The position numbers and the translations under genes are program-made. A DNA stretch of 64,000 nucleotides. Origin: Candidatus Nealsonbacteria bacterium (GTDB lineage: Bacteria; Patescibacteriota; Minisyncoccia; Minisyncoccales; JAGGXC01). Of the stretch, positions 16,343 through 20,044 are shown piece by piece. Location of the stretch: positions 77,784 to 141,783 of the forward strand of contig JAPLXH010000006.1 in the NCBI GenBank assembly GCA_026396195.1, given 5' to 3'. The notes below the pieces were generated by a model that worked only from the letters and a program-made list of their open reading frames with translations, had not been told where the DNA came from and did no database searches. The number at the start of each line of letters is the position of its first letter. The first letter of the stretch is position 1.

Positions 16343-16442
16343 AGTGGCTTGCCCTGAGCGAGTCTTCGGCTTGGCTCAGACCAAGACGAAGCGAGTCGAA
16401 TGGGCTCCGCGGGTAGGATTCGAACCTACAACCTAGTGCTTA

Positions 16443-16971
16443 CACCTTGCCCTCATGTTTCCATAAGGAGTGGACTATATCTTCATCTTGTTCCGATTTC
16501 ATCGAAATTTAGATGTTCCGGTATCTAGTCTCTACGGAGCCCCCGCCAAGGCGGGGTTCCCACGGTATTACCCTGAGCTTACTTAAGGGCTTCACCGTTA
16601 TCCCGGAATGTTTCATTCCAAAATTTCTTTTGGAAGCTGCGTAATGCCTACGTGCAATTCTCTATGACAATTTGCGCACAATAAAATACATTTATCAATT
16701 TCTTTTTTTACTTTCTCCCACGATCTTGTATATCCCTTATCAGAAATTGAAAAATCTTTTTCAGAATTATTAAGATGGTGGAATTCTAAAGCTTGAATGC
16801 ATTGATTATAACCGCATACAATACATTTGCCACCCTTATATTCTATCGACATTTGTCGAATTTTCCTTCTTCTTTTCGCTACTGCTTTTATAAGATATTT
16901 TGCACGATCGGCGTATTTTCTTCTGTCTGGCATAAATTTAATTAATTTTACCAAAAAAGAAGAATTGTGTC
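16443..16971 (-). mobile_element. group I intron (529 nt) in the tRNA anticodon loop, carrying an HNH ORF
   Basis: An R element CCGTAGAGACTAGAT (16523-16535) and an S element AAGATATAGTCC (16472-16483, exact match to the group I consensus) form P7 (GACUA/UAGUC). The 5' exon ends in U and the intron ends in G (16443). P1/IGS could not be assigned by eye. Confidence 0.75.
16613..16954 (-). CDS. HNH homing endonuclease (intron-encoded)
   Basis: CIVCGYNQCIQALEFHHLNN...CILLCANCHRELH matches the pattern CxxC...HH...CxxCH...H. The track start is TTG at 16954; the alternative is ATG at 16933. Confidence 0.8.
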   Translation of the reverse strand: MVKLIKFMPDRRKYADRAKYLIKAVAKRRRKIRQMSIEYKGGKCIVCGYNQCIQALEFHHLNNSEKDFSISDKGYTRSWEKVKKEIDKCILLCANCHRELHVGITQLPKEILE

Positions 16972-17013
16972 ACAGGCACCCGCGCTACCATTGCGCCACC
17001 GCGGAATATTTCT

Positions 17014-17041: not shown

Positions 17042-18250
17042 TTAGTAGCCTTTTAGTTTTTGCAAAGAGCGATGTTGTCGGATTTTTTCAAGGGCTTTGG
17101 CTTCAATTTGTCTTATTCTTTCCCGAGTTACGCCAAAAACCTTGCCCACTTCTTCCAAAGTGTGATTTATTCCGTCTTTCAAACCAAATCTCATGGAAAG
17201 AATTTTATGCTCTCTGGGAGTTAAATCAACTAAAATCTCTTCCAGTTGTTTTCTCAAAAAAGCTCTGGCGGCTTTTGTCTGGGGAGGCGGAGTTTTTTCA
17301 TCTTCAACAAACTCCAATAAAATACTGTCTCCGTCTTCATCTCCCACCGGTGTTTCCAAGGAAATGGTTTTTTGGGAAATTTTCATTACATGATGAACCT
17401 TTTCTACTTCAATGCCCATTTCAGCCGCAATTTCCTCAGGAAAAGGCTCCCGCCTCAGGTTCTGAGACAGCTGTCTTCTGACTTTTGTGTATTTGGAAAT
17501 AGTTTCCACCATGTGAACCGGAATTCTGATGGTTCTGGCCTGGTCGGCCAAAGCCCGGGTAACAGCTTGTCTTATCCACCAAGTTGCATAAGTTGAAAAT
17601 TTATAACCTCTCCGCCAATCAAATTTTTCCACTGCCCGGAATAAGCCCAAATTGCCCTCTTGAATCAAGTCCAGCATAGTTAGGTTAGGAGAACGGCCAA
17701 CATATTTTTTAGCAATAGAAACCACCAATCTTAGATTGGCCTTAGCCAAGCTTTTTTTAGCCTCTTCGTCTCCTTTTTCAATAAGCTTTGCCAATTCTTT
17801 TTCCTCTTTCGCGTTCAAAAAAGGAGTTTTACCGATTTCTTTTAAATAAATTTGCACCAAATCAACCCCTTCTCCTCTTGCCGGCTTTACCTTGACCCCT
17901 TTAACTTCCAAAAATTCTCTTGATTGCTTGACTTCAATACCTTGCTTCTCCAATTCTTTATACAAATCTTCCAGGCCGGAGATATCATTTTCCATATCCG
18001 GAAAATGATACAAAAGTTCGGAAAAAGTGATAAACCCTCTGGACTTGCCTTTTTTAATCAGCTCCGCTATCTTTTCGGGAGTAAAAACTTTCTTTTTTCT
18101 CCCCCTGGTTTCTTTGGGCGATTTCTTGGTTTTTTTCTTTTTCTTTGCTTTTTTCTTTTTCGTTTTTTTAATTTTTTTCTTTTTTGCGGTTTTCTTTCCG
18201 GTTTTTTTCGCCTTTTTTGTTTTCTTCTTTTTATTTTTTTTCTTTGCCAT
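17042..18250 (-). CDS. rpoD: primary sigma factor RpoD with Lys-rich N-terminal extension
   Basis: Regions 1.2-4 are present ([27 protein letters not shown]; region 4 [19 protein letters not shown]). The first ~55 aa are poly-K. Confidence 0.9.
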
Positions 18251-18253
18251 AAT

Positions 18254-20044
18254 TTAATTATTATTAATTAACTCTTTTGACAAATCATTAAATTGCCTCA
18301 CCAGTTCCTCTATTTTTTTATAATCTTTTTCGTTCTCGGACTTTTTAATTTCTTTGGCAATTTTTTCCAATCTTTCTTTAATGTCAAAACCCCTGATTTC
18401 CCGCAGACAAACTTTTGTTTCCTGGCAGGGGTCCATTTCACAAAATTCCTCGTCAATCTCCGCTTTTAAAAGCAAAGGATTTAAAAATTCAATTTCCCCT
18501 TCCGGCAAATCTTTTTGAAAATCGGCGAACCTGATTTTAAAATCGGAAAAATCTTTATCTTCCTGAAAAAATTTCTTAAATTTCGAAACAAAGCCCGAGG
18601 CGTTTCCGCCCAGCAAACAAATATCGTTATCACAGATTAACTTGTGATTTTCGGGTTTCCTTAAAAGAAGAGAAAGCAATCTTTCCTCTGTTTTCTCTTT
18701 TCTTGATTTAGCAACGCTTTCCACTTCGACCTTATCTTCTTCGTCCATTAAATTGTAATTTTGGTCTTTAATTTTTTTAAGCTCCTCTTCAACGTCCTCC
18801 ATTCTGACTTCCAGGCTCTTGGATAACTTTTGAATCCAGTGTGATTGGACGATTTTATTGGGAATTCTTTTTATAACGGGCAACAGAATTTTTGAAATTT
18901 CTTTTTTACCTTCGGGAGTTGTTTTATCAATCCGGGAAAGGGTGGTATCAAAATAAAAATCCAGAATTGATTTTGCCTGGCTGATTAATTTTTCCCATTC
19001 CTTTGGGTCCTTGGAAATAACATCAGCCGGGTCGGTATCTTGAGGCGTATTAAGGATTTTGATATTAAAATCCAAACTCTGGGCTAAGTCTATCCCTCTT
19101 TTGGTTGCCGTATCGCCGGCCAAATCCATGTCAAAGGCTAAAATCAAATTTTCCGAATATCTTTTTAAAATTTTTAATTGAAAAAGAGTTAAAGCGGTTC
19201 CGGAAGCAGCCACCACATTTTCCTGGCCAACCTGGTGAGATAAAATACAATCGGTATATCCTTCAACTAAAACAACCGAGTCCCTTCTTCTGATTTCCAC
19301 CTTCGCTTGGTCCAATCCGTACAGGGTTCGGCCCTTGTCATACAAAAGAGTGGCGGGAGTGTTTACGTATTTGGCTATTTCGTCTTTTTCTTTGGGTCCG
19401 AAAATCCGGCCGCCAAAACCTGTCACTTGGGAGTTAATATCGAAAACCGGAAACATAATCCGGCTTTGAAAGCGGTCGTAATAGTTTCCCCTGTCGTTTT
19501 CAATGGCTAAACCCGATTTTACGATTTCTTTTATTTTATATCCCTGGGAAATCAAAAAATCGCTTAATCCCCTGAAATTATCCGGGGCATAGCCGATTCT
19601 CCATTTATTTATTGAATCTTGGGTTATATTCCGCCCTAAAAGATATTTTTTAGCCGATTGTCCCGCGTTGTTTCCCTCTAATTGCTTCTCAAAAAATTTA
19701 CAAGCCAACTCTGAAATTTCATAAAGATTTTGGCGCTCGGTTCTCATCTCAGGCCTTATCTCCTTTAATTGAATTCCTGCTTTCTGGGCTAAAATTTTTA
19801 AGGCGTCTCCGAATTCTATTCTTTCCACTTCTTTAATAAAACCGAAAATGTCTCCGCCCTTGCCGCAACCGAAACAATGCCAAATCTGACGGGCCGGTGA
19901 AATAAAAAAAGAGGCCTTTTTTTCCGAATGAAAAGGACAGCGAGCCCTGTAATTTGCTCCGCATTTTTGAACTTTAATATAACCGCCGATAACCTCGACT
20001 ATATCCAAGCGGGATTTAATATCATCAATTTGAGAGCCAAACAT
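18254..20044 (-). CDS. dnaG: DNA primase DnaG
   Basis: Zinc finger CPFHSEKKASFFISPARQIWHCFGCGKGGD and a TOPRIM domain (VLVEGYTDC...DMDLAGD). Confidence 0.9.
   Translation of the reverse strand: MFGSQIDDIKSRLDIVEVIGGYIKVQKCGANYRARCPFHSEKKASFFISPARQIWHCFGCGKGGDIFGFIKEVERIEFGDALKILAQKAGIQLKEIRPEMRTERQNLYEISELACKFFEKQLEGNNAGQSAKKYLLGRNITQDSINKWRIGYAPDNFRGLSDFLISQGYKIKEIVKSGLAIENDRGNYYDRFQSRIMFPVFDINSQVTGFGGRIFGPKEKDEIAKYVNTPATLLYDKGRTLYGLDQAKVEIRRRDSVVLVEGYTDCILSHQVGQENVVAASGTALTLFQLKILKRYSENLILAFDMDLAGDTATKRGIDLAQSLDFNIKILNTPQDTDPADVISKDPKEWEKLISQAKSILDFYFDTTLSRIDKTTPEGKKEISKILLPVIKRIPNKIVQSHWIQKLSKSLEVRMEDVEEELKKIKDQNYNLMDEEDKVEVESVAKSRKEKTEERLLSLLLRKPENHKLICDNDICLLGGNASGFVSKFKKFFQEDKDFSDFKIRFADFQKDLPEGEIEFLNPLLLKAEIDEEFCEMDPCQETKVCLREIRGFDIKERLEKIAKEIKKSENEKDYKKIEELVRQFNDLSKELINNN

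Follow-up and report, generated by a model that had tools for sequence, protein, structure and literature searches.

The 64,000-nt stretch of DNA analysed here (hereafter the window) carries on its minus strand a tRNA-Asn(GUU) gene in two halves, 17005-16972 and 16442-16405, with a 529-nt group I intron between them. The explanation that we favour, with a probability of roughly 0.93, is that this is a tRNA-Asn(GUU) gene of a Patescibacteria bacterium, split between U35 and U36 by a self-splicing group I intron with an HNH ORF. This type of intron is already known: Nakagawa et al. (mSystems 2026, PMC13011429; preprint 2025) described Patescibacteria tRNA-Asn(GUU) genes with group I introns at 35/36 and validated these introns experimentally, and it is from the homology of our copy to same-class introns spliced in vitro that we infer its splicing. 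The locus itself is one more copy of a described class; the only leads worth following are the prevalence of the intron and its phage relatives.

The 5' exon (17005-16972, U1 to U35, with the 3' end ...GGUGCCUGU) reads TCCGCGG-TG-GCGC-AATGGTA-GCGC-G-GGTGC-CTGT, and the 3' exon (16442-16405, U36 to A72 plus the discriminator G73) reads TAA-GCACT-AGGTT-GTAGG-TTCGAAT-CCTAC-CCGCGGA-G. A preliminary description of this DNA, made without database searches, had recognised the two minus-strand halves, 529 nt apart, as parts of one tRNA, and the arms on which it relied are all present (TCCGCGG/CCGCGGA, GCGC/GCGC, GGTGC/GCACT, which includes one G-U pair, and GTAGG-TTCGAAT-CCTAC). ARAGORN in intron mode recovered the split tRNA with its 529-nt intron; given the joined exons, it found a tRNA fold in all four possible registers, and it called tRNA-Asn(gtt), with a canonical cloverleaf, on the joined exons. 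Their scoring, which had been suggested as a check, ended with their acceptance as a tRNA. In default mode the same program reported only tRNA-Ser and tRNA-Leu in the 64-kb window and missed the split gene. The 3' exon is followed by CCC; CCA is not encoded in the gene and must therefore be added post-transcriptionally. A U1-A72 pair together with discriminator G73 is what is expected for bacterial tRNA-Asn. Both features can be read directly from this tRNA, and in the related loci, all of which start with TCC... or TTCC... and end with ...GGAG, U1, A72 and G73 are found throughout, which bears out their earlier use as support for Asn.

The gene lies 3' of dnaG (18254-20044) and rpoD (17042-18250), both on the minus strand, a neighbourhood that fits a bacterial chromosome. 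At its N-terminus the rpoD product carries a long tail rich in lysine. The TTGATT-16-TATAAT promoter of the preliminary description was found again by a consensus scan as a promoter-like site at 17041-17014 (minus strand; pattern match to 10 of 12 consensus positions), and the end of its -10 hexamer is 8 nt 5' of tRNA position 1. Downstream of the gene there is a structured trailer with two hairpins (16400-16310, minus strand; fold -40.9 kcal/mol, z -3.6). The first of these, at 16350-16392, is the longer one, and the second hairpin with its U run is probably a terminator.

Two splice registers fit group I chemistry at this locus, Asn(GUU) at 35/36 and Thr(UGU) at 33/34. If the same intron were spliced two bases upstream, at 33/34, the product would be a tRNA-Thr(UGU) with the loop CUUGUAA, carrying CCUUGUAAGC / CCTTGTAAGC. 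This is the default ARAGORN call on the region (Thr(tgt), 33/34), and here too there would be a U at position -1 and a G at the intron end. We nevertheless consider the Thr register extremely improbable. Of the 80 loci examined around relatives of the intron ORF, 76 contain a split tRNA, and in 75 of these the 5' exon ends with CTGT, the intron ends with G and the 3' exon begins with TAA. Where the intron starts with A, ARAGORN unambiguously places it at 35/36 of tRNA-Asn, and in such introns the GTT register alone gives a 7-nt loop and a terminal G. The Thr calls were confined to introns that start with G and end with TG, as the one in the window does; one further ambiguous locus was called His. 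The 76th locus (L074), called Pro by ARAGORN, is without CTGT and looks spurious. The U1-A72 pair and G73 also fit Asn, and precisely this miscall by ARAGORN and tFind, as Thr(UGU) at 33/34, was reported in PMC13011429, where the 35/36 site was confirmed by sequencing of the spliced product.

Uninterrupted alleles lead to the same register. When metagenomes were scanned for the anticodon stem-loop in its spliced form, 120 contigs were obtained; it must be noted that the search pattern presumes the GTT register over 17 nt, and that the remaining 55 nt of the tRNA and the synteny are independent of the pattern. In 22 of the 120 contigs there is an uninterrupted tRNA gene identical to the joined exons in 72 of 72 nt, and many of these intron-less alleles lie in the dnaG-rpoD-tRNA order of the window, at about 70% nucleotide identity. 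The intron core was found in none of the 120 contigs. When the syntenic intron-less contigs were compared with the window by BLAST, the alignment ran up to 16972 and resumed at 16442, and their uninterrupted genes read CCTGTTAAGC, which speaks against Thr. Based on the junctions of the relatives, the P1 pairing described below, the tRNA body and the intron-less alleles, we place the intron at 16971-16443, with a terminal (omega) G at 16443; a G at the intron end was also part of the earlier reading. Rfam, ARAGORN and the covariation analysis point to the same element. The preliminary description had already preferred Asn(GUU) to Thr(UGU), placed the insertion at 35/36 of the anticodon and suggested a search for intron-less alleles, and with the 75 of 76 loci, the BLAST breakpoints (16972/16442), the 22 uninterrupted genes and the wobble at U35 in P1 we regard the Asn(GUU) register as settled on the sequence comparisons.

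The internal guide sequence, GCAGC at 16640-16636, would form the 3' strand of P1. It is invariant in 49 of 49 aligned relatives and lies directly 5' of the P2 hairpin (UUCCAAAA-GAAA-UUUUGGAA, 16635-16616). GCAG pairs with C32-U35 of the exon, U35 (16972) standing opposite G16640 as a U.G wobble; in the Thr register GCAG would set A, not G, opposite U33, and the wobble falls at U35. P1 consists here of 4 pairs, followed by a C31.C mismatch, and cannot be supported by covariation because both of its strands are invariant. Our first candidate for the guide was GUAGGCAUU (16651-16643), which can pair with the exon end GGUGCCUGU at 9 positions. We rejected it because it lacks conservation, being absent from relatives that share the exon sequence (e.g. 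L001 and L002), and because it falls within Val-Gly-Ile codons (GUA GGC AUU). Both candidates put the wobble at U35. A P10 helix would have at best 3 weak pairs (UAA with UUA, at a one-base offset), and we make no claim for it.

That the intron belongs to group I was proposed on the basis of its S and R-like elements, together with a recommendation to run the Rfam model. The model RF00028 (Intron_gpI), run on a 700-nt region, matched 16666-16451 over its full length with 60.0 bits (cutoff 50, E 1.1e-14). A scan of the whole window at the gathering threshold with default filters reported no intron, and since the same model scores 60 bits on the small region, we regard this miss as a speed-filter artefact. 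The S element AAGATATAGTCC is located at 16483-16472 exactly as described, and the R-like element GTAGAGACTAGA and its pairing with S to form P7 (GACUA/UAGUC) were likewise found; the range given for the R-like element was, however, one base too long, the actual range being 16535-16524. The catalytic core P3-P9 occupies 16608-16451 on the minus strand, with P3 formed by 16608-16603 and 16521-16516, P4/P5 at 16597-16563, P6 at 16561-16536, P7 formed by 16532-16526 and 16477-16472, P8 at 16515-16484 and P9, with a GAAA loop, at 16468-16451. P9.0 pairs AC 16471-16470 with GU 16445-16444, just 5' of the omega G.

Support for this structure came from related loci, which were gathered via the intron ORF and whose ribozyme parts were aligned. 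RNAalifold, applied to 49 sequences, recovered P2, P4, P5, P6, P7 and P9, with compensatory changes in 24 of the 31 predicted pairs; P3 and P8 cannot be drawn by this program because of the pseudoknot. A complete structure with the P3/P7 pseudoknot, P8 and P9.0 was therefore written by hand. It was applied to the ten sequences that belong to the sub-class of the window copy, since the MAFFT alignment of P3 was wrong across sub-classes. In these ten sequences 94.9% of the cells pair, and 28 of the 51 pairs have changed on both sides. When the partners were slid by 1-3 columns, pairing dropped to 34-47%, and none of 500 shuffles reached the observed value. Covarying pairs were found in P3 (5 of 6), P8 (4 of 5) and P9 (5 of 7), whereas P7 is invariant; in P2, 6 of 8 pairs are compensatory in the ten sequences, and in the 49-sequence alignment all 6 predicted pairs are, each in 2-31 sequences. 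Both pairs of P9.0 covary (AC/GU, GU/AC, AU/AU, AA/UU, GC/GC). Two extra hairpins between P7 and P3' occur in 30 of the 49 aligned relatives and are absent from the window copy. The intron core was present in 79 of the 80 related genomic loci. On this pattern of matches and covariation, the locus is a group I intron in a tRNA gene.

The intron contains an uninterrupted ORF, which can be read as 113 aa from a TTG (16954-16613) or as 106 aa plus stop from an ATG (16933-16613). The ATG is used in the NCBI annotation of a 100% identical protein, a hypothetical protein of a Candidatus Nealsonbacteria assembly. In the protein collection over 3400 relatives were found, and an HNH endonuclease, as assigned earlier for the 113-aa frame, is the probable identity of the product: the motif CxxC...HH...CANCH...H is present, and HNH endonuclease families of PHROG match the product with E values of 1.4e-31 and 3e-27. 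The residues C37, C40, H52, H53, C86, N88, C89, H90 and H94 (CxxC, HH and CANCHRE-x-H) are invariant across the relatives. The match to Pfam PF01844 (HNH) stayed at 16.5 bits, below the cutoff of 21.4. The ORF starts 38 nt into the intron and stops inside P2, its last 14 codons (...HVGITQLPKEILE) overlapping the guide sequence and P2. Two ORF-less phage tRNA-Asn introns (L227 and L254) have the same GCAGC and P2 element 6-9 nt past the 5' splice site, from which it follows that in the window the P1 loop has received the ORF as an insertion. The free-standing relatives from phages diverge immediately past CANCHRE-x-H and are without the TQLP tail, and this fits the idea that the tail is fixed by the structure of the RNA and not by the function of the protein. 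Across the 5' splice site, a short distance before the ORF, lies a second promoter-like site (16973-16945, minus strand), GTGACA-17-TAAAAT, which has a TG extension. It could allow expression of the HNH protein independently of the tRNA precursor; its surroundings are AT-rich and contain 8 promoter-like matches where 2.5 are expected.

With these parts the following course of events can be proposed. The precursor would probably be transcribed from the TTGATT-16-TATAAT pattern just upstream of the gene. The exon end C32-U35 would pair with GCAG of the intron to form P1 with its U35.G wobble, free guanosine would attack after U35, and the terminal G16443, placed by P9.0 and P7, would direct the ligation of the exons to U36. 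The spliced junction in the GTT register would be GGUGCCUGU/UAAGCACU (CCUGU/UAAGC), and the product a tRNA-Asn with the anticodon loop CUGUUAA. The HNH protein would cut intron-less tRNA-Asn genes, leading to homing and spread of the intron.

It is conceivable that the locus has decayed, i.e. that the tRNA halves and the intron are relics which no longer splice, and that the cell uses another tRNA-Asn gene. P1 is weak in the window copy, CCA is not encoded, expression of the locus is assumed from its sequence, and the visible part of the genome, 64 kb, leaves room for a second, intron-less copy. Against this, the exons have remained identical at 72 of 72 positions to intron-less alleles that look functional, all core helices are intact and in line with the covariation pattern, the ORF is open throughout and shows 82-86% identity to the nearest relatives that are not the same protein, and ARAGORN found no other tRNA-Asn in the 64-kb window. 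We consider decay very unlikely, and a working intron in a tRNA-Asn gene remains our reading of the locus.

The HNH-bearing form of the intron appears to be widespread. In a set in which each species is represented by a single genome, relatives of the HNH protein are encoded in at least 592 stretches; among the best 80 of these, the intron core is present in 79 and a split tRNA in 76, the tRNA being tRNA-Asn in 75 of the 76. Nakagawa et al. found 15 tRNA-Asn(GUU) genes with group I introns at 35/36 among 95 complete Patescibacteria genomes, 4 of the 15 introns carrying an HNH (PF01844) gene and exceeding 500 nt, and in 4,934 complete genomes they counted 12 endonuclease-bearing tRNA introns, of which these HNH-bearing Asn introns make up 4 (PMC13011429). 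Occurrence in at least 592 species-level genomes, as judged from the HNH relatives and the best 80 loci, would make the HNH-bearing form far commoner than reported, and goes slightly beyond that paper. About 22 of the best 80 loci are labelled as coming from outside Patescibacteria (Omnitrophota, Elusimicrobia, Acidobacteriota, Aerophobetes, Simkania and Planctomycetia); some of the labels on third-party assemblies ('uncultured Gammaproteobacteria', for example) do not look reliable, and contigs may have been mis-binned. The copies of the Omnitrophota type form a sub-class of their own, with no P7-P3' hairpins and a different ORF tail.

Relatives of the HNH protein are also encoded by viruses. 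At least 571 stretches of IMG/VR viral contigs encode one, with about 47-74% identity among the best 80 (L201-L280). In these 80 loci the intron form was found in L201 only; the others contain free-standing ORFs in tRNA arrays (e.g. L217:1420-1824 and L205:1071-1870). The phage proteins have additional N-terminal extensions, which are Cys-rich or helix-turn-helix-like. In 57 of the 80 loci the tRNA immediately beside the ORF is tRNA-Asn(GUU), and the share of tRNA-Asn, 13% among all tRNAs of these loci, rises to 43% among the immediate neighbours. In two loci (L227:517-1149 and L254:1411-2267) the free-standing HNH ORF lies just 5' of a tRNA-Asn that is itself interrupted after CTGT by an ORF-less group I intron of about 200 nt, an arrangement that resembles a proposed step in the process by which endonuclease genes come to reside in introns.

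These associations bear on the function of the HNH protein. To judge from its motif and its genomic associations, it is in all likelihood a homing endonuclease with intron-less tRNA-Asn genes as its targets, and the existence of intron-less alleles is a further, indirect hint. One could also imagine that the intron splices and that the protein is not a mobility nuclease but a splicing helper (maturase) or an inactive remnant. Nuclease activity is predicted from sequence, the best match in a search of solved structures was the HNH domain of a group II intron maturase (weak, E 0.007), and the overlap of the ORF with P1 and P2 could couple translation to RNA folding. A role of this kind is nevertheless rather unlikely in view of the invariance of the catalytic and zinc-binding residues in the relatives, and of the position of the free-standing phage relatives beside tRNA-Asn in the 57 loci mentioned above, a position seen typically with homing endonucleases, not with maturases. 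Furthermore, the tRNA-Asn intron studied by Nakagawa et al. spliced in vitro without protein.

Taking the homing endonuclease as the preferred reading, it is tempting to speculate that a single endonuclease lineage has specialised on tRNA-Asn genes and exists in, and moves between, intron-encoded and free-standing forms, that the intron is actively mobile, and that phages may contribute to its spread. The intron-encoded form would then be present in hundreds of species of Patescibacteria as well as in some Omnitrophota, Elusimicrobia and Acidobacteriota, and the free-standing form beside tRNA-Asn in phage tRNA arrays, sometimes next to an ORF-less tRNA-Asn intron. We offer this as a tentative proposal, which we hold with somewhat less than even confidence. 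If true, it would argue against the conclusion of Nakagawa et al. that bacterial tRNA introns undergo only limited horizontal transfer, and would provide a natural series for the invasion of an intron by a free-standing endonuclease gene.

The locus also illustrates a problem of annotation. Standard tools miss or mislabel the gene: ARAGORN without intron mode returns nothing at the locus and with intron mode returns tRNA-Thr, and the failure of the default-filter Rfam scan on the whole window is a warning for automated annotation. A genome treated in this way would appear to lack tRNA-Asn, which would lower the completeness estimates for these small genomes. This point about annotation and completeness was already made in PMC13011429.

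In the preliminary description an ORF-bearing intron at 35/36 of tRNA-Asn was thought to be unusual. This view is out of date, as the class described in PMC13011429 includes HNH-bearing members. The accompanying survey of bacterial tRNA introns (Leu, fMet, Arg and Ile, mostly ORF-less) was correct as an earlier state of knowledge and has been overtaken by the papers of Nakagawa et al. and Williams. According to Nakagawa et al., the class was first listed, under the name Asn.4Ug, by Williams 2020 (bioRxiv 10.1101/2020.01.27.920355); in the searchable text of that preprint, whose results table is an image, the terms 'Asn' and 'HNH' do not occur, and we attribute priority for the Asn class to Williams on the strength of the citation by Nakagawa et al. 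The intron of the window shares with the published class the host phylum, the tRNA, the insertion site, the U at position -1, the terminal G and the two-base register ambiguity that leads ARAGORN to Thr(UGU) at 33/34. The in vitro self-splicing reported for the class was precise, as judged by sequencing of the ligated exons and by a control in which the terminal G was changed to C. Our copy differs in coming from a draft Nealsonbacteria assembly, outside the complete genomes studied there. The Patescibacteria introns were assigned to subgroup IA in that paper; the window copy is without the two P7-P3' hairpins of 30 of the 49 relatives.

Among the longer known bacterial systems, the introns of Azoarcus tRNA-Ile(CAU) and cyanobacterial tRNA-Leu(UAA), which belong to subgroup IC3, are similarly small and are likewise located in the anticodon loop. 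They appear to share with the present intron the core elements GUAGAGACUAGA and GAUAUAGUCC and the GAAA tetraloops on P2 and P9. They differ in interrupting other tRNAs at other sites (36/37 and 34/35), and the classical representatives are ORF-less. The Synechocystis tRNA-fMet intron, which encodes I-Ssp6803I, provides a precedent for a homing endonuclease gene in a bacterial tRNA group I intron, a function that is predicted in our case; I-Ssp6803I is, however, a PD-(D/E)XK enzyme and not an HNH enzyme, and its intron is inserted at 33/34 of tRNA-fMet (PMC13011429). For the phage HNH relatives in tRNA arrays the closest parallel is SegB of phage T4, described as a free-standing homing endonuclease in a phage tRNA region (PMC2330249), although SegB is a GIY-YIG enzyme of unrelated sequence.
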